NCBI GenBank assembly: GCA_965277405.1
Contig: OZ255726.1
Span: 576,001-640,000 of the forward strand
Direction of reading: 5' to 3'
Length of the DNA stretch: 64,000 nt
DNA from: Gammaproteobacteria bacterium
Lineage (GTDB): Bacteria; Pseudomonadota; Gammaproteobacteria; G965277405
In this document: in pieces, positions 20,925 through 44,900 of the stretch
Numbering within the stretch: position 1 is the stretch's first letter
Layout of the letters: every line of letters begins with the position of its first letter
Made by a program: the position numbers and the translations under genes
Notes under the pieces: generated by a model
What the model saw: the letters and a program-made list of their open reading frames with translations, nothing else
What the model was told of the DNA's origin: nothing
The model's database searches: none

Positions 20925-23900
20925 CTAATCTTGATGATATTTAATTACTAATTGCCATTGACTAAAGGTGTCATCGTGACTGTCTGCATAGTCAGTATTG
21001 TCATCTGCTACAAAATCACCTGCTGCAAACAAATCCTTCACTGTTATTCTCCAATGACCTTGTATGCTTTCACCAAGAAATGCATGCACAGCTATGGGTT
21101 GCTGATAACCTAGGTTAGCTTGAGTGTGTCCATTTCCTGCAGGATACGCCGGATACGATGTTCCTGCAGGCGATGTTAAAGATATTTCTATGTCTTGCAG
21201 CGCTGTTGTCGTTAGTTTAACAAATAGGTTGAGGTGGTCGATTTTGCCAGTTGCTGCAACGTATAGTTCCTTGCTAACACCATCGCTATTTTTATTCGGT
21301 ACAAGCATGGGTACAAAAGTATGATTTTTGGTAATTGCCTCAATTCTGTCATGGGTAATCAACTGCGAATAGCTCTTCGCCATCGCTAATGCTGCATCTA
21401 CATTGACCAAACCAAAGCCATACCAATCGCTGTAATTAAGACCTGCCGCATTAGTAATCCAACCCCGACTAAATTGATAAGCGCCGCTACCTGGAATATC
21501 TGTAGTCACTGTGTAGTCGGCATCAATTATCGTTGCTGTTTTCGCCAATATATACCGCACATCCCAAATAGTTAATGCTGGATGTTGCGAAAGTAACAAC
21601 GCAACCGCGCCACTGACAATTGCAGCCGCTGCGCGCGTACCGTGGAAAGTATTGGTGTAATTGCATGTTGGATCGTCATGGTGGAATTGGTTTGCTAAAA
21701 CGTTACTTGCTGCATTATCTGCTAACTCATGGTTACTATAACCCCTGCTACAGGAAGTTACATCTGTGGTGAACATTCCAGGTTCTCCAGCTAACATTCC
21801 AGGTTCTCCAGCTGATGGACTACCTTGCTCGCCACCAAAACCACTCACCCAAATAGCCCCGGCTGCAGCATAGCTCGCGCGTTTCCCGAAGGCGTTGACT
21901 GCGCCAACAGTGATGATCGGTAAGATGTCTTCCTTATCAAAACCAGCCAAGCCACAGCTCGTACCTATTACATTCGCTTGGCTGCATGCGTCACCATCAC
22001 CAATATATGAATCGCCTGCAGGTTTAATAAAAATGACTCCTTTGCCGTTTCTGCCATCTTGAATCCTGCGCATGATTATTGCGTTGCTGCCAATTGCTGC
22101 GGTAGCTGGCGTGCCGATGTGATCAAGGCGACTAGCTAGCTGGTCGCCTAAATACACAATATCGGCTTCAACTGCTGGGGAATCAGTGGCACTGGGGTCG
22201 CCATCACCAACACTATATTGTAAATACGTGGCATTGCTATTGACACCAGCAGCCATATTGTTAAAGCCAAGCAATTTGGCTTTGGGTGCGACACCCAAGC
22301 CACCCATACCATTATCTGCCATGGCAATCAAGCCAGCTATTGCTGTACCATGGTCGCCGTCACTACCCCTTGGGCTGGGATCGGTTGTTCCTGTCGCGGC
22401 ATTAGGTTGCATAAATGACCCCGTTGCAAAAGCATATCCTTGCCGAGGATCAATATTGTCAGCTAAATCAGGGTGGGTTATTTGCAAGCCAGTATCAACC
22501 ACGCTCACCAACGTTCCTTGACCGAGGCAGCCATCAGTGCGCCATGCACGTTGTAAGTTTAAATGGATGCTACTATCCATTTTGCTAGCATCCATGCCGG
22601 TGGCAATTTGACCTTGTTGCCTACCATCTAAGTACCATTGATATTTTTCTAATGGATTGCTATCTGGTAACGATACAAGCGTGTCTGTATCACAATTTGA
22701 ATTAACCGCTGTCATAAAAATAGTTGCTGTACTAACGGGGAAGTCCACCACATTAGATACATAACCCGAAACCACATATTCTGCTTTGCTTGCTACTATT
22801 GTTGGTGACCCTTGGATTGCACAGCTGTCGTTTGCCACAACTAGTGTCAAGCCAGCAGGTAGCGGCGGTGCTATGCTGCAACGAACAATTTCAACAGTGT
22901 TGACAAATTGCCATTGCTGCTGATTTTGGTATGTCAACATCGTCTGGGCAATTTTATCATCCATTTGCGGTAGCGCATAGATGGCGGTGATGAGGACGTC
23001 TGCACTGCTATCACCAGCGGAATTTGACCCAGTAATAACGTAGTTGCTAGTTTGTGTTGCACTAACATTGTTGGGACTGCCATCAATTTGGCAGGTGCTG
23101 CGTCCATTGCCACCTACAGCTATATTCAGGGCTAAACCTGGCGGCAGCGGTGGTGTGGGGGTACAACTGGTCACATCACCACCATTGTTCTCAATTATTA
23201 TATGCTGAGGAATTCGATCACTGACTACAAACACCATTGCGGTATTGTTATATAATAATGCTGGTGCTTGATCATTGGCTGTTTGATCGTTGGGTGTTTG
23301 ATCATTGACAGTGATGCTATCGCGTAATGCTATAGACCTTCGCGACCTTGACCTTCGTTGCGGCTCTATTCGTGCACTTCTAGCACTTCGAGCACTCCGT
23401 TGAGGATTTGAAGCATAAGAACGTCCAGAAAACGGATTCTCATATATTTCGATGAGTACCGTTGCGCGACTTTCGCCGCCGCTATTGGACCCTTTTATTG
23501 TATACATTATCTCGTATTCTTGAGGTACCGTTGGAGTTCCTGTTATCTGACACGTTGCTTTACCTAAGAAGGTTGCAACTGCAAGCTGCAAACCACCAGC
23601 TAGCTGTGGTGCAATATCACAACTTATTACATCCCCACCAAAGTTTAAAAAGTTCACAGCTTGTATGGGTATACCTATTATGTAATACTGATCTGCTAAT
23701 CTGCCCAAAATTGGAGGGATATCATAGTTCACCGTGATGCTGATATCTGCGCTGCTAGTGCCGCCGCTATTCGACGCTGTGATTGTATACGTTATCGGGT
23801 CTTCTTGCAGGGTGGTTGGGGTTCCTGTTATCTGGCAACTAGCTCCATCTGGCGTTTTCTTAAGTGTTAAACCATCAGGCCATGCTGCGCTATTATCCCC

Positions 23901-26900
23901 GCCTACTTCGCAACTTGTCACCGCACCGCCTGTGTTGCCAAAATCAACAGCTGCTATCGCTGTGTCTATTGTGTAATGCTGCGGGCTTGGGCTGGCTAGC
24001 TCTGGGATATTATCGTTCACCGTGATGCTGATAGCTGCGCTGCTAGTGCCGCCGCTATTCGTCGCGGTGATGGTATACGTTATCGGTTCTTCTTGCAGGG
24101 TGGTTGGTATTCCTGTTAGCTGACAAGTTGCTGGATCTGCGATGGTGGCAAGCTGCAAACCACCAATTAGCTGTGGCGCAACATCACAGCTGGTTACCGC
24201 ACCGCCTGTGTTGCCAAAATCAACAGCTGCTATCGGCGTGTTGATGGTGTATATCCGCGGGCTTGGATTTACTAGCTCTGGGATATTATCGTTCACCGTG
24301 ATGCTGATATCGGCGCTGCTATCGCCACCGCTGTTCGTCGCTGTGATGGTATACGTTATAGCGTCTTCTTGCAGGGTGGTTGGTATTCCTGTTAGCTGAC
24401 AAGTTGCTGGATCTGCTATGGTGGCAAGCTGCAAACCACCAACTAGCGGCGGTACAACACCACAACTTGTTACCGCACCGCCTGTGTTGCCAAAATCAAC
24501 AGCTGCTATCGCTGTGTCTATTGTGTAATGCTGCGGACTGGGACTTACTAACGCTGGGATATTATCGTTCACCGTGATGCTGATAGCTGCGCTGCTAGTG
24601 CCGCCGCTATTCGTCGCGGTGATGGTATACGTTATCGGTTCTTCTTGCAGTACGGTTGGAGTGCCTGTTAGCTGACAAGTTGCTGGATCTGCTATGGTGG
24701 CAAGCTGCAAACCACCAACTAGCGGCGGTACAACGCCACAGCTGGTTACCGCTCCGCCTGTGTTGCCAAAATCAACAGCTGCTATCGCTGTGTCTATTGT
24801 GTAATGCTGCGGACTGGGACTTACTAACGCTGGGATATTATCATTCACCGTGATGCTGATAGCTGCGCTGCTAGTGCCGCCGCTATTCGACGCTGTGATT
24901 GTATACGTTGCCTCTTCTTCATGCAGTGCGGTTGGGGTTCCTGTTATTTGGCAACTAGCTCCGTCTGGCGTTTTCTTAAGTGTTAAACCATCAGGCCATG
25001 CTGCGCTATTATCCCCGCCTACTTCGCAACTTGTCACCGCACCACCTGTGTTGCCAAAATCAACAGCTGCTATCGCTGTGTTGATGGTGTATATCCGCGG
25101 GCTGGGGGTTGCTAGCGCTGGGATATTATCGTTCACCGTGATGCTGATATCTGCGCTGCTAGTGCCGCCGCTATTCGACGCTGTTATTGTATACGTTGCC
25201 TCTTCTTCATGCAGTGCGGTTGGGGTTCCTGTTATCTGGCAACTAGCTCCGTCTGGCGTTTTCTTAAGTGTTAAACCATCAGGCCATGCTGCGCTATTAT
25301 CCCCGCCTACTTCGCAACTTGTCACCGCACCGCCTGTGTTGCTAAAGTTCACAGTTGGTATCGCTGTGTCTATTGTGTAATGCTGCGGGCTGGGGGTTGC
25401 TAGCGCTGGGATATTATCGTTCACCGTGATGCTGATATCTGCGCTGCTAGTGCCGCCGCTATTCGTCGCGGTGATGGTATACGTTATAGCGTCTTCTTGC
25501 AGTGTGGTTGGTATTCCTGTTAGCTGACAAGTTGCTGGATCTGCTATGGTGGCAAGCTGCAAACCACTAGGTAGCGGTGTTGAAACATCACAGCTTGTTA
25601 CCGCACCGCCTGTGTTGCCAAAATCAACAGCTGCTATCGGCGTGTTGATGGTGTATATCCGCGGGCTTGGATTTACTAGCGCTGGGATATTATCATTCAC
25701 CGTGATGCTGATATCTGCGCTGCTAGTGCCGCCGCTATTCGTCGCTGTTATTGTATACGTTGCCTCTTCTTCATGCAGTGCGGTTGGGGTTCCTGTTATC
25801 TGGCAACTAGCTCCGTCTGTCGTTTTCTTAAGTGTTAAACCATCAGGCCATGCTGCGCTATTATCCCCGCCTACTTCGCAGCTTGTCACCGCACCGCCTG
25901 TGTTGCCAAAATCAACAGCTGCTATCGCTGTGTCTATTGTGTAATGCTGCGGACTGGGACTTACTAACGCTGGGATATTATCATTCACCGTGATGCTGAT
26001 ATCGGCGCTGCTAGTGCCGCCGCTATTCGTCGCTGTTATTGTATACGTTGCCTCTTCTTCATGCAGTGCGGTTGGGGTTCCTGTTATCTGGCAACTAGCT
26101 CCGTCTGGCGTTTTCTTAAGTGTTAAACCATCAGGCCATGCTGCGCTATTATCCCCGCCTACTTCGCAACTTGTCACCGCACCGCCTGTGTTGCTAAAGT
26201 TCACAGTTGGTATCGCTGTGTCTATTGTGTAATGCTGCGGACTGGGACTTACTAACGCTGGGATATTATCGTTCACCGTGATGCTGATATCTGCGCTGCT
26301 AGTGCCGCCGCTATTCGTCGCGGTGATGGTATACGTTATAGCGTCTTCTTGCAGTGTGGTTGGTATTCCTGTTAGCTGACAAGTTGCTGGATCTGCTATG
26401 GTGGCAAGCTGCAAACCACTAGGTAGCGGTGCTGAAACATTACAGCTTGTCACCGCACCGCCTGTGTTGCTAAAATCAACAGCTGCTATCGCTGTGTTGA
26501 TGGTGTATATCCGCGGGCTTGGATTTACTAGCGCTGGGATATTATCATTCACCGTGATGCTGATATCGGCGCTGCTAGTGCCGCCGCTATTCGTCGCGGT
26601 GATGGTATACGTTATCGGATCTTCTTGCAGTACGATTGGAGTGCCTGTTAGCTGACAAGTTGCTGGATCTGCTATGGTGGCAAGCTGCAAACCACCAACT
26701 AGCGGCGGTACAACGCCACAGCTTGTCACCGCACCGCCTGTGTTGCCAAAATCAACAGCTGCTATCGGCGTGTTGATGGTGTATATCCGCGGGCTTGGGG
26801 TTGCTAGCTCTGGGATATTATCGTTCACCGTGATGCTGATATCGGCGCTGCTATCGCCGCCGCTATTCGTCGCTGTTATTGTATACGTTATCGAGTCTTC

Positions 26901-29900
26901 TTGCAGGGTGGTTGGCATACCTGTTAGCTGACAAGTTGCTGGATCTGCTATGGTGGCAAGCTGCAAACCACCAATTAGCTGTGGCGCAACATCACAGCTT
27001 GTCACCGCACCGCCTGTGTTGCCAAAATCAACAGCTGCTATCGGTGTGTTGATGGTGTATATCCGCGGGCTTGGATTTACTAGCTCTGGGATATTATCGT
27101 TCACCGTGATGCTGATATCTGCGCTGCTATCGCCACCGCTATTCGTCGCTGTGATGGTATACGTTATAGCGTCTTCTTGCAGGGTGGTTGGTATTCCTGT
27201 TAGCTGACAAGTTGCTGGATCTGCTATGGTGGCAAGCTGCAAGTCACCAACTAGCTGCGGTGAAACGTCACAACTTGTTACATCCCCACCAAAGTTGACA
27301 AAGTTCACAGTTGGTATCGCTGTGTTGATGGTGAATAGCTGCGGGGGTGGGCTTATTAAATTTGGCTGAGCATCGTTCACCGTGATGCTTATCGCTGCGA
27401 TGTCAGTACCGCCGCTATTCGTCGCTGTTATTGTATACGTTATCGGGTCTTCTTGCAGGGTGATTGGTATTCCTGTTATCTGGCAACTAGCTCCGTCTGG
27501 CGTTTTCTTAAGTGTTAAACCATCAGGCCATGCTGCGCTATTATCCCCGCCTACTTCGCAGCTTGTCACCGCACCACCTGTGTTGCTAAAGTTCACAGTT
27601 GGTATCGCTGTGTCTATTGTGTAATGCTGCGGACTGGGACTTACTAACTCTGGGATATTATCGTTCACCGTGATGCTGATATCTGCGCTGCTAGTGCCGC
27701 CGCTATTCGTCGCTGTTATTGTATACGTTGTCGCGTCTTCATGCAGTGCGGTTGGGGTTCCTGTTATCTGGCAACTAGCTCCGTCTGGCGTTTTCTTAAG
27801 TGTTAAACCATCAGGCCATGCTGCGCTATTATCCCCGCCTACTTCGCAGCTTGTCACCGCACCACCTGTGTTGCTAAAGTTCACAGCTGGTATCGCTGTG
27901 TCTATTGTGTAATGCTGCGGACTGGGACTTACTAACTCTGGGATATTATCGTTCACCGTTATGCTGATATCGGCGCTGCTAGTGCCGCCGCTATTCGACG
28001 CTGTGATTGTATACGTTGCCTCTTCTTCATGCAGTGCGGTTGGGGTTCCTGTTAGCTGGCAACTAGCTCCGTCTGTCGTTTTCTTAAGTGTTAAACCATC
28101 AGGCCATGCTGCGCTATTATCCCCGCCTACTTCGCAGCTTGTCACCGCACCACCTGTGTTGCCAAAATCAACAGCTGCTATCGCTGTGTCTATTGTGTAA
28201 TGCTGCGGACTGGGACTTACTAACGCTGGGATATTATCATTCACCGTGATGGTTATCGCTGCGCTGCTAGTGCCGCCGCTATTCGTCGCTGTGATTGTAT
28301 ACGTTGCCTCTTCTTCATGCAGTGCGGTTGGGGTTCCTGTTATCTGGCAACTAGCTCCGTCTGTCGTTTTCTTAAGTGTTAAACCATCAGGCCATGCTGC
28401 GCTATTATCCCCGCCTACTTCGCAGCTTGTCACCGCACCACCTGTGTTGCCAAAATCAACAGCTGCTATCGCTGTGTCTATTGTGTAATGCTGCGGGCTG
28501 GGGGTTGCTAGCTCTGGGATATTATCGTTCACCGTGATGCTGATATCTGCGCTGCTAGTGCCGCCGCTATTCGTCGCGGTGATGGTATACGTTATAGCGT
28601 CTTCTTGCAGTGTGGTTGGTATTCCTGTTAGCTGACAAGTTGCTGGATCTGCTATGGTGGCAAGCTGCAAACCACCAATTAGCTGTGGCGCAACATCACA
28701 GCTGGTTACCGCACCGCCTGCGTTGTCAAAATCAACAGCTGCTATCGGCGTGTTGATGGTGTATATCCGCGGGTTTGGGTTTACTAGCTCTGGGATATTA
28801 TCGTTCACCGTGATGCTGATAGCTGCGCGGCTAGTGCCGCCGCTATTCGTCGCGGTGATGGTATACGTTATCGGTTCTTCTTGCAGTGCGGTTGGTATTC
28901 CTGTTAGCTGACAAGTTGCTGGATCTGCTATGGTGGCAAGCTGCAAACCACCAACTAGCGGTGGTGCAACACCACAGCTTGTTACCGCACCGCCTGTGTT
29001 GCCAAAATCAACAGCTGCTATCGGCGTGTTGATGGTGTATATCCGCGGGTTTGGGTTTACTAGCTCTGGGATATTATCGTTCACCGTGATGCTGATAGCT
29101 GCGCGGCTAGTGCCGCCGCTATTCGTCGCGGTGATGGTATACGTTATCGGTTCTTCTTGCAGTGCGGTTGGTATTCCTGTTAGCTGACAAGTTGCTGGAT
29201 CTGCTATGGTGGCAAGCTGCAAACCACCAACTAGCGGTGGTGCAACACCACAGCTTGTTACCGCACCGCCTGTGTTGCCAAAATCAACAGCTGCTATCGC
29301 TGTGTTGATGGTGTATATCCGCGGGCTTGGATTTACTAGCGCAGGGATATTATCGTTCACCGTGATGCTGATATCTGCGCTGCTATCGCCACCGCTGTTC
29401 GTCGCTGTGATGGTATACGTTATCGGGTCTTCTTGCAGCGTGGTTGGTATTCCTGTTAGCTGACAAGTTGCTGGATCTGCTATGGTGGCAAGCTGCAAAC
29501 CACCAATTAGCTGTGGAGCAACATCACAGCTTGTCACCGCACCGCCTGCGTTGCCAAAATCAACAGCTGCTATCGGCGTGTTGATGGTGTATATCCGCGG
29601 GCTTGGATTTACTAGCGCTGGGATATTATCGTTCACCGTGATGCTGATAGCTGCGCGGCTAGTGCCGCCGCTATTCGTCGCGGTGATGGTATACGTTATC
29701 GGTTCTTCTTGCAGTGCGGTTGGGGTTCCTGTTAGCTGGCAACTAGCTCCGTCTGGCGTTTTCTTAAGTGTTAAACCATCAGGCCATGCTGCGCTATTAT
29801 CCCCGCCTACTTCGCAACTTGTCACCGCACCACCTGTGTTGCCAAAATCAACAGCTGCTATCGCTGTGTCTATTGTGTAATGCTGCGGACTGGGACTTAC

Positions 29901-32900
29901 TAACGCTGGGATATTATCATTCACCGTGATGCTGATATCTGCGCTGCTAGTGCCGCCGCTATTCGTCGCTGTTATTGTATACGTTGCCTCTTCTTCATGC
30001 AGTGCGGTTGGGGTTCCTGTTATCTGGCAACTAGCTCCGTCTGTCGTTTTCTTAAGTGTTAAACCATCAGGCCATGCTGCGCTATTATCCCCGCCTACTT
30101 CGCAGCTTGTCACCGCACCGCCTGTGTTGCCAAAATCAACAGCTGCTATCGCTGTGTCTATTGTGTAATGCTGCGGACTGGGACTTACTAACGCTGGGAT
30201 ATTATCATTCACAGTGATGCTGATATCTGCGCTGCTATCGCCACCGCTATTAGACGCTGTGATGGTATACGTTGCCTCTTCTTCATGCAGTGCGGTTGGG
30301 GTTCCTGTTATCTGGCAACTAGCTCCGTCTGGCGTTTTCTTAAGTGTTAAACCATCAGGCCATGCTGCGCTATTATCCCCGCCTACTTCGCAACTTGTCA
30401 CCGCACCACCTGTGTTGCCAAAATCAACAGCTGCTATCGCTGTGTCTATTGTGTAATGCTGCGGACTGGGACTTACTAACGCTGGGATATTATCGTTCAC
30501 CGTGATGCTGATATCTGCGTTGCTAGTGCCGCCGCTATTCGACGCTGTTATTGTATACGTTGCCTCTTCTTCATGCAGTGCGGTTGGCGTTCCTGTTATT
30601 TGGCAACTAGCTCCGTCTGGCGTTTTCTTAAGTGTTAAACCATCAGGCCATGCTGCGCTATTATCCCCGCCTACTTCGCAACTTGTCACCGCACCGCCTG
30701 TGTTGCCAAAATCAACAGCTGCTATCGCTGTGTTGATGGTGTATATCCGCGGGCTGGGGGTTGCTAGCTCTGGGATATTATCATTCACCGTGATGCTGAT
30801 ATCTGCGCTGCTAGTGCCGCCGCTATTCGACGCTGTTATTGTATACGTTGCCTCTTCTTCATGCAGTGCGGTTGGGGTTCCTGTTATCTGGCAACTAGCT
30901 CCGTCTGGCGTTTTCTTAAGTGTTAAACCATCAGGCCATGCTGCGCTATTATCCCCGCCTACTTCGCAACTTGTCACCGCACCGCCTGTGTTGCCAAAAT
31001 CAACAGCTGCTATCGGCGTGTTGATGGTGTATATCCGCGGGCTGGGGGTTGCTAGCGCTGGGATATTATCGTTCACCGTGATGCTGATATCTGCGCTGCT
31101 AGTGCCGCCGCTATTCGTCGCGGTGATGGTATACGTTATCGGATCTTCTTGCAGTACGGTTGGGGTTCCTGTTATCTGGCAACTAGCTCCGTCTGGCGTT
31201 TTCTTAAGTGTTAAACCATCAGGCCATGCTGCGCTATTATCCCCGCCTACTTCGCAACTTGTCACCGCACCGCCTGTGTTGCCAAAATCAACAGCTGCTA
31301 TCGCTGTGTCTATTGTGTAATGCTGCGGACTGGGACTTACTAACGCTGGGATATTATCGTTCACCGTGATGCTGATATCTGCGCTGCTAGTGCCGCCGCT
31401 ATTCGTCGCGGTGATGGTATACGTTATCGGTTCTTCTTGCAGGGTGGTTGGTATTCCTGTTAGCTGACAAGTTGCTGGATCTGCTATGGTGGCAAGCTGC
31501 AAACCACTAGGTAGCGGTGCTGAAACATCACAGCTTGTTACCGCACCGCCTGTGTTGCCAAAATCAACAGCTGCTATCGGCGTGTTGATGGTGTATATCA
31601 GCGGGCTGGGGGTTGTTGCTAGCTCTGGGATATTATCGTTCACCGTGATGCTGATATCTGCGCTGCTAGTGCCGCCGCTATTCGTCGCGGTGATGGTATA
31701 CGTTATAGCGTCTTCTTGCAGCGTGGTTGGTATTCCTGTTAGCTGACAAGTTGCTGGATCTGCTATGGTGGCAAGCTGCAAACCACCAACTAGCGGCGGT
31801 ACAACGCCACAGCTTGTTACCGCACCGCCTGTGTTGCCAAAATCAACAGCTGCTATCGGCGTGTTGATGGTGTATATCCGCGGGCTGGGGGTTGCTAGCG
31901 CTGGGATATTATCGTTCACCGTGATGCTGATATCTGCGCTGCTAGTGCCGCCGCTATTCGTCGCTGTTATTGTATACGTTATCGCGTCTTCTTGCAGTGC
32001 CGTTGGCATACCTGTTAGCTGACAAGTTGCTGTATCATCTACTATGGTGGCAACTGCCAGCTGCAAACCACCAATTAGCTGTGGAGCAACATCACAGCTT
32101 GTCACCGCACCGCCTGCGTTGCCAAAATCAACAGCTGCTATCGCTGTGTTGATGGTGTATATCCGCGGGCTTGGGGTTGCTAGCGCTGGGATATTATCGT
32201 TCACCGTGATGCTGATAGCTGCGCTGCTAGTGCCGCCGCTATTCGTCGCTGTTATTGTATACGTTATCGCGTCTTCTTGCAGTGCCGTTGGCATACCTGT
32301 TAGCTGACAAGTTGCTGTATCATCTACTATGGTGGCAACTGCCAGCTGCAAACCACCAATTAGCTGTGGAGCAACATCACAGCTTGTCACCGCACCGCCT
32401 GCGTTGCCAAAATCAACAGCTGCTATCGCTGTGTTGATGGTGTATATCCGCGGGCTTGGGGTTGCTAGCGCTGGGATATTATCGTTCACCGTGATGCTGA
32501 TAGCTGCGCTGCTAGCACCGCCGCTATTCGTCGCTGTTATTGTATACGTTATCGGTTCTTCTTGCAGTACGGTTGGAGTGCCTGTTAGCTGACAAGTTGC
32601 TGGATCTGCTATGGTGGCAAGCTGCAAGTCACTAGGTAGCGGTGTTGAAACATCACAGCTTGTTACCGCACCGCCTGTGTTGCCAAAATCAACAGCTGCT
32701 ATCGGCGTGTTGATGGTGTATATCCGCGGGCTTGGGGTTGCTAGCTCTGGGATATTATCGTTCACCGTGATGCTGATAGCTGCGCTGCTAGTGCCGCCGC
32801 TATTCGTCGCGGTGATGGTATACGTTATCGGTTCTTCTTGCAGGGTGGTTGGCGTACCTGTTAGCTGGCAACTAGCTCCGTCTGGCGTTTTCTTAAGTGT

Positions 32901-35900
32901 TAAACCATCAGGCCATGCTGCGCTATTATCCCCGCCTACTTCGCAACTTGTCACCGCACCGCCTGTGTTGCCAAAATCAACAGCTGCTATCGCTGTGTCT
33001 ATTGTGTAATGCTGCGGACTGGGACTTACTAACGCTGGGATATTATCATTCACCGTGATGGTTATCGCTGCGTTGCTAGTGCCGCCGCTATTCGTCGCGG
33101 TGATGGTATACGTTATCGGTTCTTCTTGCAGTACGGTTGGAGTGCCTGTTAGCTGACAAGTTGCTGGATCTGCTATGGTGGCAAGCTGCAAACCACCAAC
33201 TAGCGGCGGTACAACGCCACAGCTTGTCACCGCACCGCCTGTGTTGCCAAAATCAACAGCTGCTATCGCTGTGTTGATGGTGTATATCCGCGGGCTTGGA
33301 TTTACTAGCTCTGGGATATTATCGTTCACCGTGATGCTGATATCTGCGCTGCTAGTGCCGCCGCTATTCGTCGCGGTGATGGTATACGTTATCGGTTCTT
33401 CTTGCAGTGTGGTTGGTATTCCTGTTAGCTGACAAGTTGCTGGATCTGCTATGGTGGCAAGCTGCAAACCACCAACTAGCGGCGGTACAACGCCACAGCT
33501 TGTTACCGCACCGCCTGTGTTGCCAAAATCAACAGCTGCTATCGGCGTGTTGATGGTGTATATCCGCGGGCTTGGATTTACTAGCTCTGGAATATTATCG
33601 TTCACCGTGATGGTTATCGCTGCGTTGCTAGTGCCGCCGCTATTCGTCGCTGTTATTGTATGTGTTATCGGATCTTCTTGCAGTACGGTTGGAGTGCCTG
33701 TTAGCTGACAAGTTGCTGGATCTGCTATGGTGGCAAGCTGCAAACCACTAGGTAGCGGTGTTGAAACATCACAGCTTGTCACGCCACCGCCTGTGTTGCC
33801 AAAATCAACAGTTGGTATCACTGTGTTGATGGTGAATGACTGCGGGCTGGGGCTGACTAGCTCTGGGATATTATCGTTCACCGTGATGCTGATAGCTGCG
33901 CTGCTAGTGCCGCCGCTATTCGTCGCGGTGATGGTATACGTTATAGCGTCTTCTTGCAGCGTGGTTGGTATTCCTGTTAGCTGACAAGTTGCTGGATCTG
34001 CTATGTTGACAAGCTGCAAACCACCAATTAGCTGTGGAGCAACATCACAGCTTGTCACCGCACCGCCTGCGTTGCCAAAATCAACAGCTGCTATCGGCGT
34101 GTTGATGGTGTATATCCGCGGGCTTGGATTTACTAGCTCTGGAATATTATCGTTCACCGTGATGGTTATCACTGCGTTGCTAGTGCCGCCGCTATTCGTC
34201 GCTGTTATTGTATACGTTATCGGTTCTTCTTGCAGTGCGGTTGGCGTACCTGTTAGCTGACAAGTTGCTGGATCTGCTATGGTGGCAAGCTGCAAACCAC
34301 TAGGTAGCGGTGCTGAAACATCACAGCTTGTTACCGCACCGCCTGCGTTGCCAAAATCAACAGCTGCTATCGGTGTGTTGATGGTGTATATCCGCGGGCT
34401 GGGGCTGACTAGCTCTGGGATATTATCGTTCACCGTGATGCTGATATCTGCGCGGCTAGTGCCGCCGCTATTCGTCGCGGTGATGGTATACGTTATAGCG
34501 TCTTCTTGCAGTGTGGTTGGAGTTCCTGTTAGTTGACAAGTTGCTGGATCTGCTATGGTGGCAAGCTGCAAACCACTAGGTAGCGGTGTTGAAACATCAC
34601 AGCTTGTTACCGCACCGCCTGTGTTGCCAAAATCAACAGCTGCTATCGGCGTGTTGATGGTGTATATCCGCGGGCTTGGGGTTGCTAGCGCTGGGATATT
34701 ATCGTTCACCGTGATGCTGATATCGGCGCTGCTAGTGCCGCCGCTATTCGACGCTGTTATTGTATACGTTGCCTCTTCTTCATGCAGTGCGGTTGGGGTT
34801 CCTGTTATCTGGCAACTAGCTCCGTCTGTCGTTTTCTTAAGTGTTAAACCATCAGGCCATGCTGCGCTATTATCCCCGCCTACTTCGCAACTTGTCACCG
34901 CACCACCTGTGTTGCCAAAATCAACAGCTGCTATCGCTGTGTTGATGGTGTATATCCGCGGGCTTGGATTTACTAGCTCTGGGATATTATCGTTCACCGT
35001 GATGCTGATATCTGCGCTGCTAGTGCCGCCGCTATTCGTCGCGGTGATGGTATACGTTATCGGTTCTTCTTGCAGTGCGGTTGGTATTCCTGTTAGCTGA
35101 CAAGTTGCTGGATCTGCTACGGTGGCAAGCTGCAAACCACCAACTAGCTGTGGCGCAACATCACAGCTTGTTACCGCTCCGCCTGTGTTGCCAAAATCAA
35201 CAGCTGCTATCGGCGTGTTGATGGTGTATATCCGCGGGCTGGGGGTTGCTAGCGCTGGGATATTATCGTTCACCGTGATGCTGATATCGGCGCTGCTAGT
35301 GCCGCCGCTATTCGTCGCTGTTATTGTATACGTTGCCTCTTCTTCATGCAGTGCGGTTGGGGTTCCTGTTAGCTGGCAACTAGCTCCGTCTGGCGTTTTC
35401 TTAAGTGTTAAACCATCAGGCCATGCTGCGCTATTATCCCCGCCTACTTCGCAACTTGTCACCGCACCGCCTGTGTTGCCAAAATCAACAGCTGCTATCG
35501 CTGTGTCTATTGTGTAATGCTGCGGACTGGGACTTACTAACGCTGGGATATTATCATTCACCGTGATGCTGATAGCTGCGCTGCTAGTGCCGCCGCTATT
35601 CGACGCTGTGATTGTATACGTTGCCTCTTCTTCATGCAGTGCGGTTGGGGTTCCTGTTATTTGGCAACTAGCTCCGTCTGGCGTTTTCTTAAGTGTTAAA
35701 CCATCAGGCCATGCTGCGCTATTATCCCCGCCTACTTCGCAGCTTGTCACCGCACCACCTGTGTTGCCAAAATCAACAGCTGCTATCGCTGTGTTGATGG
35801 TGTATATCCGCGGGCTTGGATTTACTAGCTCTGGGATATTATCGTTCACCGTGATGCTGATATCTGCGCTGCTAGTGCCGCCGCTATTCGTCGCGGTGAT

Positions 35901-38900
35901 GGTATACGTTATCGGTTCTTCTTGCAGTGCGGTTGGTATTCCTGTTAGCTGACAAGTTGCTGGATCTGCTACGGTGGCAAGCTGCAAACCACCAACTAGC
36001 TGTGGCGCAACATCACAGCTTGTTACCGCTCCGCCTGTGTTGCCAAAATCAACAGCTGCTATCGGCGTGTTGATGGTGTATATCCGCGGGCTTGGATTTA
36101 CTAGCTCTGGAATATTATCGTTCACCGTGATGGTTATCGCTGCGTTGCTAGTGCCGCCGCTATTCGTCGCTGTTATTGTATACGTTATCGGTTCTTCTTG
36201 CAGTGTGGTTGGTATTCCTGTTAGCTGACAAGTTGCTGGATCTGCTATGTTGACAAGCTGCAAACCACCAACTAGCGGCGGTACAACACCACAACTTGTT
36301 ACCGCACCGCCTGTGTTGCCAAAATCAACAGCTGCTATCGGCGTGTTGATGGTGTATATCCGCGGGCTTGGATTTACTAGCGCTGGGATATTATCGTTCA
36401 CCGTGATGCTGATAGCTGCGCGGCTAGTGCCGCCGCTATTCGTCGCGGTGATGGTATACGTTATAGCGTCTTCTTGCAGGGTGGTTGGTATTCCTGTTAG
36501 CTGACAAGTTGCTGGATCTGCTATGGTGGCAAGCTGCAAACCACCAATTAGCTGTGGCGCAACATCACAGCTTGTCACCGCACCGCCTGTGTTGCCAAAA
36601 TCAACAGCTGCTATCGGCGTGTTGATGGTGTATATCCGCGGGCTTGGATTTACTAGCGCTGGGATATTATCGTTCACCGTGATGCTGATAGCTGCGCGGC
36701 TAGTGCCGCCGCTATTCGTCGCGGTGATGGTATACGTTATAGCGTCTTCTTGCAGGGTGGTTGGTATTCCTGTTAGCTGACAAGTTGCTGGATCTGCTAT
36801 GGTGGCAAGCTGCAAACCACCAATTAGCTGTGGCGCAACATCACAGCTTGTCACCGCACCGCCTGTGTTGCCAAAATCAACAGCTGCTATCGGCGTGTTG
36901 ATGGTGTATATCCGCGGGCTGGGGGTTGCTAGCTCTGGGATATTATCGTTCACCGTGATGCTGATATCGGCGCTGCTAGTGCCGCCGCTATTCGTCGCTG
37001 TGATGGTATACGTTGCCTCTTCTTCATGCAGTGCGGTTGGGGTTCCTGTTAGCTGGCAACTAGCTCCGTCTGGCGTTTTCTTAAGTGTTAAACCATCAGG
37101 CCATGCTGCGCTATTATCCCCGCCTACTTCGCAACTTGTCACCGCACCGCCTGCGTTGCCAAAATCAACAGCTGCTATCGGCGTGTTGATGGTGTATATC
37201 CGCGGGCTGGGGCTGACTAGCTCTGGGATATTATCGTTCACCGTGATGCTGATAGCTGCGCGGCTAGTGCCGCCGCTATTCGTCGCGGTGATGGTATACG
37301 TTATAGCGTCTTCTTGCAGGGTGGTTGGTATTCCTGTTAGCTGACAAGTTGCTGGATCTGCTATGTTGACAAGCTGCAAACCACCAACTAGCGGCGGTAC
37401 AACACCACAACTTGTTACCGCACCGCCTGCGTTGCCAAAATCAACAGCTGCTATCGGCGTGTTGATGGTGTATATCCGCGGGCTTGGGGTTGCTAGCGCT
37501 GGGATATTATCGTTCACCGTGATGCTGATATCTGCGCTGCTATCGCCGCCGCTATTCGTCGCGGTGATGGTATACGTTATCGGTTCTTCTTGCAGTACGG
37601 TTGGAGTACCTGTTAGCTGACAAGTTGCTGGATCTGCTATGGTGGCAAGCTGCAAGTCACTAGGTAGCGGTGCTGAAACGCCACAGCTTGTTACCGCACC
37701 GCCTGCGTTGCCAAAATCAACAGCTGCTATCGGCGTGTTGATGGTGTATATCCGCGGGCTTGGGGTTGCTAGCGCTGGGATATTATCGTTCACCGTGATG
37801 CTGATATCTGCGCTGCTAGTGCCGCCGCTATTCGTCGCGGTGATGGTATACGTTATAGCGTCTTCTTGCAGCGTGGTTGGTATTCCTGTTAGCTGACAAG
37901 TTGCTGGATCTGCTATGGTGGCAAGCTGCAAACCACCAACTAGCGGCGGTACAACGCCACAGCTTGTTACCGCACCGCCTGTGTTGCCAAAATCAACAGC
38001 TGCTATCGGCGTGTTGATGGTGTATATCCGCGGGCTTGGATTTACTAGCGCTGGGATATTATCGTTCACCGTGATGCTGATATCTGCGCTGCTAGTGCCG
38101 CCGCTATTCGACGCTGTGATTGTATACGTTGCCTCTTCTTCATGCAGTGCGGTTGGGGTTCCTGTTATCTGGCAACTAGCTCCGTCTGTCGTTTTCTTAA
38201 GTGTTAAACCATCAGGCCATGCTGCGCTATTATCCCCGCCTACTTCGCAACTTGTCACCGCACCACCTGTGTTGCCAAAATCAACAGCTGCTATCGCTGT
38301 GTCTATTGTGTAATGCTGCGGACTGGGACTTACTAACGCTGGGATATTATCATTCACCGTGATGCTGATAGCTGCGCTGCTAGTGCCGCCGCTATTCGAC
38401 GCTGTGATTGTATACGTTGCCTCTTCTTCATGCAGTGCGGTTGGGGTTCCTGTTATTTGGCAACTAGCTCCGTCTGGCGTTTTCTTAAGTGTTAAACCAT
38501 CAGGCCATGCTGCGCTATTATCCCCGCCTACTTCGCAACTTGTCACCGCACCACCTGTGTTGCTAAAGTTCACAGTTGGTATCGCTGTGTCTATTGTGTA
38601 ATGCTGCGGACTGGGACTTACTAACGCTGGGATATTATCGTTCACCGTGATGCTGATATCTGCGCTGCTAGTGCCGCCGCTATTCGTCGCGGTGATGGTA
38701 TACGTTGCCTCTTCTTCATGCAGTGCGGTTGGCGTTCCTGTTATTTGGCAACTAGCTCCGTCTGGCGTTTTCTTAAGTGTTAAACCATCAGGCCATGCTG
38801 CGCTATTATCCCCGCCTACTTCGCAGCTTGTCACCGCACCGCCTGTGTTGCTAAAGTTCACAGTTGGTATCGCTGTGTCTATTGTGTAATGCTGCGGGCT

Positions 38901-41900
38901 GGGGGTTGCTAGCTCTGGGATATTATCGTTCACCGTGATGCTGATATCGGCGCTGCTAGTGCCGCCGCTATTCGACGCTGTTATTGTATACGTTGCCTCT
39001 TCTTCATGCAGTGCGGTTGGGGTTCCTGTTATCTGGCAACTAGCTCCGTCTGGCGTTTTCTTAAGTGTTAAACCATCAGGCCATGCTGCGCTATTATCCC
39101 CGCCTACTTCGCAACTTGTCACCGCACCGCCTGTGTTGCTAAAGTTCACAGTTGGTATCGCTGTGTCTATTGTGTAATGCTGCGGACTGGGACTTACTAA
39201 CGCTGGGATATTATCGTTCACCGTGATGCTGATAGCTGCGCGGCTAGTGCCGCCGCTATTCGACGCTGTGATTGTATACGTTGCCTCTTCTTCATGCAGT
39301 GCGGTTGGGGTTCCTGTTATCTGGCAGCTAGCTCCGGCTGTCGTTTTCTTAAGTGTTAAACCATCAGGCCATGCTGCGCTATTATCCCCGCCTACTTCGC
39401 AGCTTGTCACCGCACCACCTGTGTTGCCAAAATCAACAGCTGCTATCGGCGTGTTGATGGTGTATATCCGCGGGCTTGGATTTACTAGCGCTGGGATATT
39501 ATCGTTCACCGTGATGCTGATATCTGCGCTGCTAGTGCCGCCGCTATTCGACGCTGTGATTGTATACGTTGCCTCTTCTTCATGCAGTGCGGTTGGGGTT
39601 CCTGTTATTTGGCAACTAGCTCCGTCTGGCGTTTTCTTAAGTGTTAAACCATCAGGCCATGCTGCGCTATTATCCCCGACTACTTCGCAACTTGTCACCG
39701 CACCGCCTGTGTTGCCAAAATCAACAGCTGCTATCGGCGTGTTGATGGTGTATATCCGCGGGCTTGGATTTACTAGCGCTGGGATATTATCGTTCACCGT
39801 GATGCTGATATCTGCGCTGCTAGTGCCGCCGCTATTCGTCGCGGTGATGGTATACGTTATCGGTTCTTCTTGCAGTACGGTTGGAGTGCCTGTTAGCTGA
39901 CAAGTTGCTGGATCTGCTATGGTGGCAAGCTGCAAGTCACTAGGTAGCGGTGTTGAAACATCACAGCTGGTTACCGCTCCGCCTGTGTTGCCAAAATCAA
40001 CAGCTGCTATCGGCGTGTTGATGGTGTATATCCGCGGGCTTGGGGTTGCTAGCGCTGGGATATTATCGTTCACCGTGATGCTGATAGCTGCGCGGCTAGT
40101 GCCGCCGCTATTCGTCGCGGTGATGGTATACGTTATCGGATCTTCTTGCAGTACGGTTGGCGTACCAGTTAGCTGACAAGTTGCTGGATCTGCTATGGTG
40201 GCAAGCTGCAAACCACTAGGTAGCGGTGCTGAAACATCACAGCTTGTTACCGCACCGCCTGTGTTGCCAAAATCAACAGCTGCTATCGGTGTGTTGATGG
40301 TGTATATCCGCGGGCTTGGGGTTGCTAGCTCTGGGATATTATCGTTCACCGTGATGCTGATATCTGCGCTGCTAGTGCCGCCGCTATTCGTCGCGGTGAT
40401 GGTATACGTTATAGCGTCTTCTTGCAGTACGGTTGGAGTGCCTGTTAGCTGACAAGTTGCTGGATCTGCTATGGTGGCAAGCTGCAAACCACCAACTAGC
40501 GGCGGTACAACGCCACAGCTGGTTACCGCACCGCCTGCGTTGCCAAAATCAACAGCTGCTATCGCTGTGTCTATTGTGTAATGCTGCGGGCTTGGGCTGA
40601 CTAGCTCTGGGATATTATCGTTCACCGTGATGCTGATATCTGCGCTGCTAGTGCCGCCGCTATTGAATCCAGTCACCGTATAGGTGGTTGCAACTTGCAG
40701 TGCCGTTGGCATACCTGTTAGCTGACAAGTTGCTGTATCATCTACTATGGTGGCAACTGCCAGCTGCAAACCACCAATTAGCTGTGGAGCAACATCACAG
40801 CTTGTCACCGCACCGCCTGCGTTGCCAAAATCAACAGCTGCTATCGGCGTGTTGATGGTGTATATCCGCGGGCTTGGATTTACTAGCTCTGGAATATTAT
40901 CGTTCACCGTGATGGTTATCGCTGCGTTGCTAGTGCCGCCGCTATTCGTCGCTGTTATTGTATACGTTATCGGTTCTTCTTGCAGTGCGGTTGGCGTACC
41001 TGTTAGCTGACAAGTTGCTGGATCTGCTATGGTGGCAAGCTGCAAACCACTAGGTAGCGGTGCTGAAACATCACAGCTTGTTACCGCACCGCCTGCGTTG
41101 CCAAAATCAACAGCTGCTATCGGTGTGTTGATGGTGTATATCCGCGGGCTGGGGCTGACTAGCTCTGGGATATTATCGTTCACCGTGATGCTGATAGCTG
41201 CGCTGCTAGTGCCGCCGCTATTCGACGCTGTGATTGTATACGTTGCCTCTTCTTCATGCAGTGCGGTTGGGGTTCCTGTTATTTGGCAACTAGCTCCGTC
41301 TGGCGTTTTCTTAAGTGTTAAACCATCAGGCCATGCTGCGCTATTATCCCCGCCTACTTCGCAACTTGTCACCGCACCACCTGTGTTGCTAAAGTTCACA
41401 GTTGGTATCGCTGTGTCTATTGTGTAATGCTGCGGACTGGGACTTACTAACGCTGGGATATTATCGTTCACCGTGATGCTGATATCTGCGCTGCTAGTGC
41501 CGCCGCTATTCGTCGCGGTGATGGTATACGTTGCCTCTTCTTCATGCAGTACGGTTGGCGTTCCTGTTATTTGGCAACTAGCTCCGTCTGGCGTTTTCTT
41601 AAGTGTTAAACCATCAGGCCATGCTGCGCTATTATCCCCGCCTACTTCGCAGCTTGTCACCGCACCGCCTGTGTTGCTAAAGTTCACAGTTGGTATCGCT
41701 GTGTCTATTGTGTAATGCTGCGGGCTGGGGGTTGCTAGCTCTGGGATATTATCGTTCACCGTGATGCTGATATCGGCGCTGCTAGTGCCGCCGCTATTCG
41801 ACGCTGTTATTGTATACGTTGCCTCTTCTTCATGCAGTGCGGTTGGGGTTCCTGTTATCTGGCAACTAGCTCCGTCTGGCGTTTTCTTAAGTGTTAAACC

Positions 41901-44900
41901 ATCAGGCCATGCTGCGCTATTATCCCCGCCTACTTCGCAACTTGTCACCGCACCGCCTGTGTTGCTAAAGTTCACAGTTGGTATCGCTGTGTCTATTGTG
42001 TAATGCTGCGGACTGGGACTTACTAACGCTGGGATATTATCGTTCACCGTGATGCTGATAGCTGCGCGGCTAGTGCCGCCGCTATTCGACGCTGTGATTG
42101 TATACGTTGCCTCTTCTTCATGCAGTGCGGTTGGGGTTCCTGTTATCTGGCAGCTAGCTCCGGCTGTCGTTTTCTTAAGTGTTAAACCATCAGGCCATGC
42201 TGCGCTATTATCCCCGCCTACTTCGCAGCTTGTCACCGCACCACCTGTGTTGCCAAAATCAACAGCTGCTATCGGCGTGTTGATGGTGTATATCCGCGGG
42301 CTTGGATTTACTAGCGCTGGGATATTATCGTTCACCGTGATGCTGATATCTGCGCTGCTAGTGCCGCCGCTATTCGACGCTGTGATTGTATACGTTGCCT
42401 CTTCTTCATGCAGTGCGGTTGGGGTTCCTGTTATTTGGCAACTAGCTCCGTCTGGCGTTTTCTTAAGTGTTAAACCATCAGGCCATGCTGCGCTATTATC
42501 CCCGACTACTTCGCAACTTGTCACCGCACCGCCTGCGTTGCCAAAATCAACAGCTGCTATCGGCGTGTTGATGGTGTATATCCGCGGGCTTGGATTTACT
42601 AGCTCTGGGATATTATCGTTCACCGTGATGCTGATATCTGCGCTGCTAGTGCCGCCGCTATTCGTCGCGGTGATGGTATACGTTATCGGATCTTCTTGCA
42701 GTACGATTGGAGTGCCTGTTAGCTGACAAGTTGCTGGATCTGCTATGGTGGCAAGCTGCAAACCACCAACTAGCGGCGGTACAACACCACAGCTTGTTAC
42801 CGCACCGCCTGCGTTGCCAAAATCAACAGCTGCTATCGGCGTGTTGATGGTGTATATACGCGGGCTTGGATTTGCTAGCGCTGGGATATTATCGTTCACC
42901 GTGATGCTGATATCTGCGCTGCTATCGCCGCCGCTATTCGTCGCGGTGATGGTATACGTTATCGGTTCATCTTGCAGGGCGGTTGGGGTTCCTGTTATCT
43001 GGCAACTAGCTCCGTCTGGCGTTTTTTTAAGTGTTAAACCATCAGGCCATGCTGCGCTATTATCCCCGCCTACTTCGCAACTTGTCACCGCACCGCCTGT
43101 GTTGCCAAAATCAACAGCTGCTATCGCTGTGTCTATTGTGTAATGCTGCGGACTGGGACTTACTAACGCTGGGATATTATCGTTCACCGTGATGCTGATA
43201 TCTGCGCTGCTAGTGCCGCCGCTATTCGTCGCTGTTATTGTATACGTTGTCGCGTCTTCATGCAGTGCGGTTGGGGTTCCTGTTATCTGGCAACTAGCTC
43301 CGTCTGGCGTTTTCTTAAGTGTTAAACCATCAGGCCATGCTGCGCTATTATCCCCGCCTACTTCGCAACTTGTCACCGCACCGCCTGTGTTGCTAAAGTT
43401 CACAGTTGCTATCGCTGTGTCTATTGTGTAATGCTGCGGACTGGGACTTACTAACGCTGGGATATTATCATTCACCGTGATGCTGATATCGGCGCTGCTA
43501 GTGCCGCCGCTATTCGACGCGGTGATTGTATACGTTGCCTCTTCTTCATGCAGTGCGGTTGGGGTTCCTGTTATTTGGCAACTAGCTCCGTCTGGCGTTT
43601 TTTTAAGTGTTAAACCATCAGGCCATGCTGCGCTATTATCCCCGCCTACTTCGCAACTTGTCACCGCACCGCCTGTGTTGCCAAAATCAACAGCTGCTAT
43701 CGCTGTGTCTATTGTGTAATGCTGCGGACTGGGACTTACTAACGCTGGGATATTATCGTTCACCGTGATGCTGATATCTGCGCTGCTAGTGCCGCCGCTA
43801 TTCGTCGCTGTTATTGTATACGTTGTCGCGTCTTCATGCAGTGCGGTTGGGGTTCCTGTTATCTGGCAACTAGCTCCGTCTGGCGTTTTCTTAAGTGTTA
43901 AACCATCAGGCCATGCTGCGCTATTATCCCCGCCTACTTCGCAACTTGTCACCGCACCGCCTGTGTTGCTAAAGTTCACAGTTGCTATCGCTGTGTCTAT
44001 TGTGTAATGCTGCGGGCTGGGGGTTGCTAGCGCTGGGATATTATCGTTCACCGTGATGCTGATATCTGCGCTGCTAGTGCCGCCGCTATTCGACGCTGTG
44101 ATTGTATACGTTGCCTCTTCTTCATGCAGTGCGGTTGGGGTTCCTGTTATTTGGCAACTAGCTCCGTCTGGCGTTTTCTTAAGTGTTAAACCATCAGGCC
44201 ATGCTGCGCTATTATCCCCGACTACTTCGCAACTTGTCACCGCACCGCCTGTGTTGCCAAAATCAACAGCTGCTATCGGCGTGTTGATGGTGTATATCCG
44301 CGGGCTGGGGGTTGCTAGCGCTGGGATATTATCGTTCACCGTGATGCTGATAGCTGCGCTGCTAGTGCCGCCGCTATTCGTCGCTGTTATTGTATACGTT
44401 ATCGGGTCTTCTTGCAGGGTGGTTGGCGTACCTGTTAGCTGACAAGTTGCTGGATCTGCTATGGTGGCAAGCTGCAAACCACCAACTAGCGGCGGTACAA
44501 CGCCACAGCTTGTTACCGCACCGCCTGCGTTGCCAAAATCAACAGCTGCTATCGGCGTGTTGATGGTGTATATCCGCGGGCTTGGATTTACTAGCGCTGG
44601 GATATTATCGTTCACCGTGATGCTGATAGCTGCGCGGCTAGTGCCGCCGCTATTCGTCGCGGTGATGGTATACGTTATCGGATCTTCTTGCAGTACGGTT
44701 GGCGTACCTGTTAGCTGACAAGTTGCTGGATCTGCTATGGTGGCAAGCTGCAAACCACTAGGTAGCGGTGCTGAAACATCACAGCTTGTTACCGCACCGC
44801 CTGTGTTGCCAAAATCAACAGCTGCTATCGCTGTGTTGATGGTGTATATCCGCGGGCTTGGGGTTGCTAGCTCTGGGATATTATCGTTCACCGTGATGCT

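Follow-up and report, generated by a model that had tools for sequence, protein, structure and literature searches.

An arginine-rich linker ahead of an inactive kexin-like head in a giant, predicted Ig-repeat lipoprotein: a possible release site for an endogenous protease

The giant gene W and its arginine-rich linker

The 64,000-nucleotide window analysed here (positions 576,001 to 640,000 of contig OZ255726.1, Gammaproteobacteria bacterium assembly GCA_965277405.1) contains a giant gene, which we refer to as W, whose product carries a short arginine-rich linker between a very long stalk of Ig-like repeats and a head related to the kexin-like subtilases; this linker, and what it may be for, is the subject of the present report. 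W is an uninterrupted open reading frame (ORF) on the minus strand (20925..49625) and encodes a lipoprotein-like product of 9566 aa, beginning MWKHIAVCFLLLLTSC, in which the lipoprotein signal was assigned by eye. The genome is represented by one contig of 2.17 Mb with 44.8% GC and is 98% complete, and this is the scope of the genome-wide counts given below.

Upstream of the arginine-rich motif, 87 repeat-end motifs of the form I[ST][IL]TV[NVQ] are spaced 92-96 aa apart. The protein as a whole contains 594 Asp, 306 Glu, 107 Lys and 97 Arg residues (1.01% Arg), for a net charge of -696. This charge is distributed very unevenly: the stalk carries -666, the Ig domains of the head -11 and the peptidase S8 and P domains (S8+P) -24, whereas the core of the linker (residues 8735-8769) carries +9. 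The stalk also contains 37 Lys-Lys pairs. With a cell anchor (the lipobox, identified by eye), a repeat stalk and a distal, non-repeat S8+P tip, W looks like a lipid-anchored fibrillar adhesin, in which binding by the tip is putative. Near its N-terminus are two duplicated arrays of acidic pentapeptides (PELxxD: PELNGD, PELTGD and similar; aa 537-627 and 1029-1119, window ~46265-48017), which form low-complexity spacers with a composition opposite to that of the basic hinge.

A reading of the window made from its sequence alone had described a cluster of furin/kexin-type cleavage motifs in an otherwise acidic, Arg-poor protein, with overlapping R-X-X-R sites and an R-S-R-R site built partly from a 9-bp triplication, separating about 90 Ig domains from two further Ig domains and an S8/P head of ~800 aa. 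This description proved accurate in each of its parts. The motif, RSARSARSARIEPQRRSRSRR, corresponds to residues 8743-8763 (window 23337-23399, minus strand), and five of the six R..R sites of W lie within it; Tandem Repeats Finder reports a repeat of period 9 with 3.1 copies and 84% matches at 23369-23396; and the motif is preceded by the 87 repeat ends counted above and followed by 803 aa. Nine of the 97 Arg residues of W fall in this 21-aa motif, and 11 in the 60-aa linker as a whole (residues 8729-8788). Under a binomial model the chance of finding at least nine Arg in any 21-aa window of W is ~3e-9, a figure that is indicative only, because the repeat units are not independent. The pattern R.[KR]R occurs once in 9566 aa, at R8760-S-R-R8763, and is followed by S8764. 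In a six-frame scan of the genome (6077 ORFs of at least 80 aa), the ORFs longer than 1000 aa with at least eight Arg per 21 aa were W, two of its paralogues (B and C, described below) and two more (G000 2053216 and 1404249). The RSA units of W are encoded as CGG AGT GCT / CGA AGT GCT / AGA AGT GCA / CGA.

Table 1. Features of the giant gene W, in window coordinates.
Feature	Position	Strand	Basis or remark
Giant gene W	20925..49625	-	Sole copy of the family intact from start to stop in the assembly
N-terminal signal and lipobox (MWKHIAVCFLLLLTS-C16)	49578..49625	-	Lipoprotein anchor, judged by eye
Stalk, ~87-90 He_PIG (PF05345) Ig repeats, net charge -666	23442..49577	-	Pfam and count of repeat-end motifs
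Linker insertion, aa 8729-8788, ENPFSGRSYASNPQ-(RSA)3R-IEPQ-RRSRSRR-SIALRDSITVND-(QTxND)n	23262..23441	-	Absent from paralogue A; predicted disordered
(RSA)3-R repeat, aa 8743-8752, 9-bp unit; 2/3/4 units in B/W/C	23370..23399	-	Codons and Tandem Repeats Finder
RRSRSRR, aa 8757-8763; two Arg-Arg pairs, Ser after each; putative scissile bond R8763/S8764	23337..23357	-	Sequence
15-bp tandem repeat, 2.7 copies, encoding the NDQT(P/A) part of the linker	23268..23307	-	Tandem Repeats Finder
Two Ig-like (He_PIG-type) head domains, aa 8789-~9020	22566..23261	-	Pfam and model
Peptidase_S8, kexin-like fold, dead: D9044, H9092, D9205 (for Asn), R9331 (for Ser)	21453..22523	-	Pfam, alignment and model
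Proprotein-convertase P domain (PF01483)	21015..21239	-	Pfam

An AlphaFold2 model of the linker and head (871 aa; alignment of 49 rows, mean pLDDT 70) places the S8+P core mostly at pLDDT 85-98. Its residues 1-111, among which the motif occupies residues 48-68, have a pLDDT of 28-33 and are without secondary structure. The model thus predicts an exposed, disordered hinge between folded domains that is undocked from the head, and because it is predicted to be disordered the linker is also likely to be accessible. Right after the basic core, the segment SIALRDSITVND (window 23334-23372) resembles SADISITVND, the strand that ends the Ig repeats of the stalk, so that part of the insertion may be what is left of a collapsed Ig repeat.

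The inactive head and its paralogues

Pfam identifies both Peptidase_S8 (PF00082, E = 3.5e-25) and P_proprotein (PF01483, E = 4.4e-09) in the head of W, and a Foldseek search with the head model returned the Aeromonas sobria serine protease (ASP; 3HJR) as its top match (E = 2.5e-42), with furin and Kex2 next (E ~1e-30 to 1e-27). The active site had been called dead from the sequence, and the alignment agrees: Asp9044 and His9092 are present, but the oxyanion Asn is replaced by Asp9205 and the catalytic Ser by Arg9331, whose codon (CGC, 21633-21635) is a single base away from AGC. The same set, D-H-D-R, in the context HGTRAAAA, is found in W and in its three paralogues A, B and C. In an alignment of S8+P domains made from the best 150 of 10,580 profile matches at E <= 1e-3, 113 of the 159 domain rows have D-H-N-S and most of the remaining rows are partial. 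By these residues the head of W is a homologue of the kexin-like subtilases and not an enzyme of that family. An Asp in the loop after the oxyanion residue, which we take to be the equivalent of Asp306 in the S1 pocket of furin, occurs in 40 of 49 aligned family members and is kept in W, in A and in the active-looking paralogue D (see below). Pfam detected no I9-type prodomain with the basic site at its end; the site in W lies ~255 aa and two Ig domains before S8.

The dead heads of W and A (window 20925-22700 and G000:C1:146516-148888, respectively) differ with a dN/dS of 0.92 (dN 0.146, dS 0.159). The difference is mosaic, the first ~100 residues being identical and the changes elsewhere being clustered in loops, which suggests relaxed or diversifying selection together with patchy gene conversion. 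P0150, a 692-aa lipoprotein from another organism, has AAGD and HGTGAAAA in common with the dead heads; on the strength of this likeness, a kexin-like lineage without the catalytic Ser may extend beyond this genome.

Four stalk-plus-head genes are present in the genome, namely W and the paralogues A, B and C. Copy A (C1:137497-148888) consists of a 2700-aa ORF overlapping an 1115-aa lipobox ORF in a different frame, and copy B (C1:10719-24470) of a 2985-aa lipobox ORF and a 1542-aa ORF separated by a gap of 172 nt. Copy C (C1:2-10372 and the contig end) has a lipobox and at least 3457 aa before its frame is lost at the contig origin, with its P domain at C1:2174326-2174577. These three copies may be true pseudogenes, or their breaks may be errors of an assembly rich in repeats. 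One type of head is common to W, B and C, with 97-98% protein identity; the head of A is ~70% identical to this type and equally dead. Compared with A, the other three carry an insertion of 57-66 aa precisely where the last stalk repeat gives way to the first Ig domain of the head. In all three it reads YENPFSGRSYASNPQ-(RSA)n-R-IEPQRRSRSRR-SIALRDSITVND-QTPNDQTANDQ, where n is three in W, two in B and four in C.

The two sides of this insertion have different histories. Downstream of IEPQ, W and B agree at 2437 of 2445 nt; four positions separate W from C in the first 2013 nt. Upstream of IEPQ the stalks of W and C are anciently diverged (200 codons, dS 1.5, dN/dS 0.41). The RSA units of C are on the old side, and their codons (Arg CGG/CGC/CGG/CGA, Ala GCT/GCC) are not those of W (CGG/CGA/AGA and GCT/GCA). 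By hand count, the units of W and C are separated by ~5 synonymous changes and no replacements, with a single change of R to Q after the last unit. Because the units of C differ only synonymously within old sequence, we take this as modest evidence that the Arg-Ser-Ala pattern has been kept by selection and is more than a recent product of slippage.

Whether homologues keep the linker could be asked of the paralogues only: three of the four (W, B and C) have it and A is without one, while in other organisms neither the head nor the linker was found, so that the comparison stops there. A search of a genome-contig collection with the 871-aa query gave 100 pattern matches, none of which was confirmed. 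None of the 40 nearest genomes, which are class-level relatives, contains the head, although three of the 40 have weak S8 or Ig matches. In a search of 5.8 billion proteins, identity to the head exceeded 35% only in this organism's own P0002, P0154 and P0003, and among the 150 best profile matches the RSA/RRSRSRR string occurred only in this organism's own entries. Among 77 matched proteins scanned for basic stretches upstream of S8, P0126 alone was similar, and it was dismissed as a linker-like case because it is Arg-rich throughout.

A second protease gene and its ORF2-type partner

The sequence-only reading had also raised the possibility of an active paralogous protease, and one active-looking candidate is encoded in the genome. 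Six matches to S8 and six to the P domain were found, in the four dead heads and in three further proteins, D, E and F. E, an ordinary subtilase, lacks a P domain; F combines Big_2 with a weak P domain and has no S8. D (G000:C1:1801406-1803475; 663 aa) has the set D-H-N-S, a lipobox (…VIITAC) and 47% identity to the head of W, and is the only intact kexin-like S8+P protein in the genome. Its closest solved relative is ASP (3HJR, E = 3.7e-54). According to PMC5638518, ASP prefers Lys at P1 and P2, cutting after Lys-Lys, and its maturation is brought about by ORF2, an external chaperone encoded immediately after it that places its C-terminal Lys at the catalytic centre.

The end of D is overlapped by 14 nt, an arrangement indicative of translational coupling, by a gene for a secreted protein of 228 aa (P0152, L025:6734-7420). 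P0152 had no sequence match in the PDB, no homologue in the search of 5.8 billion proteins and no match in Pfam, ORF_2_N included, and its single-sequence AlphaFold model (pLDDT 37) was unusable. A lead to ORF_2_N came from Atlas (score 0.89) and was then confirmed with a custom hidden Markov model (HMM). Among 80 D-like loci in named genomes, 53 have a closely following downstream ORF, of which 18 match ORF_2_N or are Fervidolysin_NPro-like, seven belong to unrelated families and 28 have no Pfam match. The HMM, built from the first 18, recognised P0152 with E = 1.4e-13 (44.9 bits, compared with 4.8 bits for the best of 200 shuffles). It also matched 20 further downstream ORFs at E <1e-5, bringing the ORF2-like total to 38 of 53, or 39 sequences counting P0152. 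Since the HMM identifies P0152 as an ORF2-type chaperone, D and P0152 are, by homology, an ASP/ORF2-type pair. And because ORF2-like ORFs follow so many D-like loci, the arrangement is, on the same footing, much wider than the five genera given in PMC5638518.

The C-terminal tails of these chaperones offer a hint about what the enzymes accept. Of 31 distinct tails, 11 have Lys or Arg at C1, 12 have one of the two at C3 and 10 at C4, and 16 have Pro at C2. As the tail of the ASP chaperone occupies the active site, this distribution fits a family cleft that accepts basic residues. The relatives of D are mostly from free-living or predatory bacteria, including Bdellovibrionota, Xanthomonas and diverse environmental genomes.

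Possible roles of the linker and related systems

We tentatively favour a reading in which the linker is a hinge open to proteolysis, at which the tip is clipped off by D, the best candidate, or by another endogenous protease with a preference for basic residues. On this reading a disordered hinge of ~60 residues with a cationic core was introduced where the polyanionic Ig stalk meets the distal head module; it arose by slippage of 9-bp (RSA), 6-bp (RS/RR) and 15-bp (NDQTx) units and has yet been retained as protein. An endogenous enzyme with a preference for basic residues, possibly D after maturation with P0152, would cut at or near RRSRSRR/S and so shed the ~800-aa tip from the stalk. Shedding might free the cell from a target held by the tip, or might release the tip as a soluble factor. 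This reading builds on what was observed: the sequence and rarity of the linker, its status as an insertion and its predicted disorder, the fact that three copies have kept it, and the presence and character of D.

Several points weigh against it. We infer the cutting, whether by D or by any other protease, and likewise the purpose of shedding. An enzyme specific for Lys-Lys would have to spare the 37 Lys-Lys pairs of the stalk, and the proposal further requires that a lipoprotein of 9566 aa and D meet, on one or the other side of the outer membrane. Conservation of RRSRSRR among the paralogues carries no information, because the string lies within the recently homogenised block that starts at IEPQ. 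The linker does not appear to be needed for the head as such, since paralogue A bears the same dead head without it, and the head module itself may be weakly constrained, given the dN/dS of 0.92 between W and A. The number of RSA copies varies from two to four among the paralogues, as would that of a neutral microsatellite. Contigs from public sequencing runs break at 23341-23370 and branch within the RSA repeat, one of them having the form shorter by 9 bp, and this branching is compatible with the picture obtained from the paralogues. Hints about the specificity of D are indirect and mixed. The tail of P0152 (…EQNALN) is non-basic and ~11 residues longer than usual, and D has Asn directly after the catalytic Asp (DNG), where ASP has Asp (DDG) and only 20 of 49 family members are acidic; furin and Kex2 also read DDG. 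Because of this tail and this residue, a preference of D for basic P1 and P2 residues is putative.

Alternatively, the linker might be an uncut cationic hinge that acts electrostatically, either as a charge latch folded against the polyanionic stalk or head, or by binding anionic material near the tip, such as lipopolysaccharide, extracellular DNA, sulfated or acidic polysaccharides or mineral surfaces. The extreme contrast in charge between the core and the stalk, head Ig domains and S8+P would suit such a role, as would the predicted disorder; moreover, the synonymous-only change in the RSA units indicates that the residues matter and not that they are cut, and the specificity of D is unproven, with a non-basic tail on its chaperone. 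We nevertheless regard this hinge as possible but doubtful, as no ligand or contact is predicted and AlphaFold leaves the linker undocked, paralogue A manages without it, and a variation of two to four RSA copies, which shifts the charge by a third, has no apparent consequence. A functionless spacer is a rather unlikely alternative: on this view the linker was born of slippage and marks a recombination junction where the head cassette was copied between stalk genes. It is built of three different tandem micro-repeats, their copy number differs between paralogues, the near-identity block of W, B and C begins precisely where the RSA repeat ends, W has other repeat-made linkers in its PELxxD arrays, and the insertion is absent from A and from all other organisms searched. 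However, neutrality sits poorly with the RSA units of C, which lie in old sequence (flanking dS 1.5) and whose ~5 differences are all synonymous, and an Arg-rich stretch is the compositional opposite of the other slippage products of W.

Release by a eukaryotic furin- or kexin-type convertase of a host, cutting after R-S-R-R, was the first of the ideas put forward from the sequence, and we consider it improbable. The site is well formed: R8760-S-R-R8763 is followed by Ser-Ile and preceded by more Arg at P6 and P7, which agrees with R-X-[K/R]-R before the putative scissile bond, and Ser at P1' and an aliphatic residue at P2' are favourable for furin. The exposure and flexibility that a furin-type site calls for are predicted by the model. 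The genomic context does not bear the idea out, however. The genome encodes no FHIPEP (the gate of type III secretion and flagellar systems), no VipB (type VI secretion), no VirB4-type type IV secretion system and no omptin; ankyrin repeats occur in two of its ORFs, and two secretins are present. The relatives of D come mostly from free-living or predatory bacteria, and the gene is missing from all 40 of the nearest genomes. The other genes of the window are concerned with ordinary metabolism and transport (accBC, ABC transporters, aldolase, isocitrate dehydrogenase). A furin-bearing host is thus unsupported by the gene content, and, because free-living and predatory bacteria commonly have D-like proteases and ORF2 chaperones, an endogenous enzyme would be the simpler candidate. 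Less probable still is the suggestion that a dead site, either that of its own head or that of a neighbour, holds the polybasic peptide as a pseudo-substrate, with auto-inhibition or cross-linking between fibres as the result. Such docking has a parallel in the active site of ASP, occupied by a chaperone tail ending in Lys (PMC5638518), and the head retains the Asp, the His and the conserved loop Asp. The model disagrees, leaving the linker free and at very low confidence (pLDDT ~30); the Arg in place of the catalytic Ser puts a positive charge where a basic P1 residue would sit, and the same site is present in paralogue A, which has no linker.

An IS5-like DDE transposase gene (DDE_Tnp_1, DUF772; window 17984-18787, plus strand) lies ~2 kb past the 3' end of W.

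The release-site reading can be extended to a self-contained convertase circuit, although we think it unlikely that the whole of this extension is correct. D, matured by its ORF2-type chaperone, would recognise a polybasic hinge evolved by its own dead paralogues and would shed pseudo-convertase tips from megadalton Ig stalks; enzyme, site and pseudo-enzyme would all derive from one protease gene, and the number of RSA units (two to four) would tune release. If the hinge is cut, it would represent a distal-end release mechanism for a giant adhesin and a rare bacterial case of an active subtilase processing its own dead paralogues at a convertase-type polybasic site, and would offer a tractable model for the co-evolution of a pseudo-protease with a cleavage site. 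If it is uncut, it would be merely an unusual cationic spacer in a lineage-specific protein, a feature confined to one organism.

The closest parallel is ASP with ORF2 (PDB 3HJR, 3WQB). The kexin-like S8+P fold is common to ASP, D and the dead heads, and a coupled ORF2-type gene comes after D just as it does after asp. ASP, however, is a secreted, soluble virulence protease of ~600 aa, whereas D is a predicted lipoprotein and four dead paralogous copies of the fold are here mounted on Ig stalks of thousands of residues; the accessible parts of the published accounts of ASP describe no polybasic substrate linker. Furin and Kex2 share the fold of the W head, and R-S-R-R followed by Ser is a site of the proprotein-convertase type, but the S8 domain adjoining the site in W is inactive, and both the enzyme and its putative substrate are bacterial paralogues. 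Compared with known fibrillar adhesins, W is anchored by an N-terminal lipobox and carries a whole, though dead, protease as its tip; the accessible parts of the published accounts of these adhesins make no mention of a polybasic hinge in front of the tip. The LapA/LapG system shares the concept that a giant adhesin is released from a surface when a dedicated bacterial protease cuts it at a short motif. LapG, a cysteine protease of family C93, acts on a di-alanine motif within the N-terminal retention module, while the cut proposed here is distal, after Arg, and made by a subtilase; Peptidase_C93 (LapG, PF06035) has no match in the genome. An active subtilase (CspB) beside Ser-less, non-catalytic paralogues (CspC, CspA) in one genome is known from Clostridioides difficile (PMC12880746), but the Csp proteins are soluble spore germination proteins without a P domain, Ig stalk or polybasic linker, and there is no close sequence kinship. 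Our search of the literature on pseudoprotease-tipped fibrillar adhesins and on furin sites in bacterial adhesins found nothing comparable, which does not by itself establish absence from print. Polybasic convertase sites, ASP/ORF2 proteases, pseudo-subtilases, fibrillar adhesins and the proteolytic release of adhesins are each already known singly; what the literature search did not turn up is their combination in one genome, with dead kexin-like tips on giant stalks, a convertase-type site ahead of them and one live sister enzyme.

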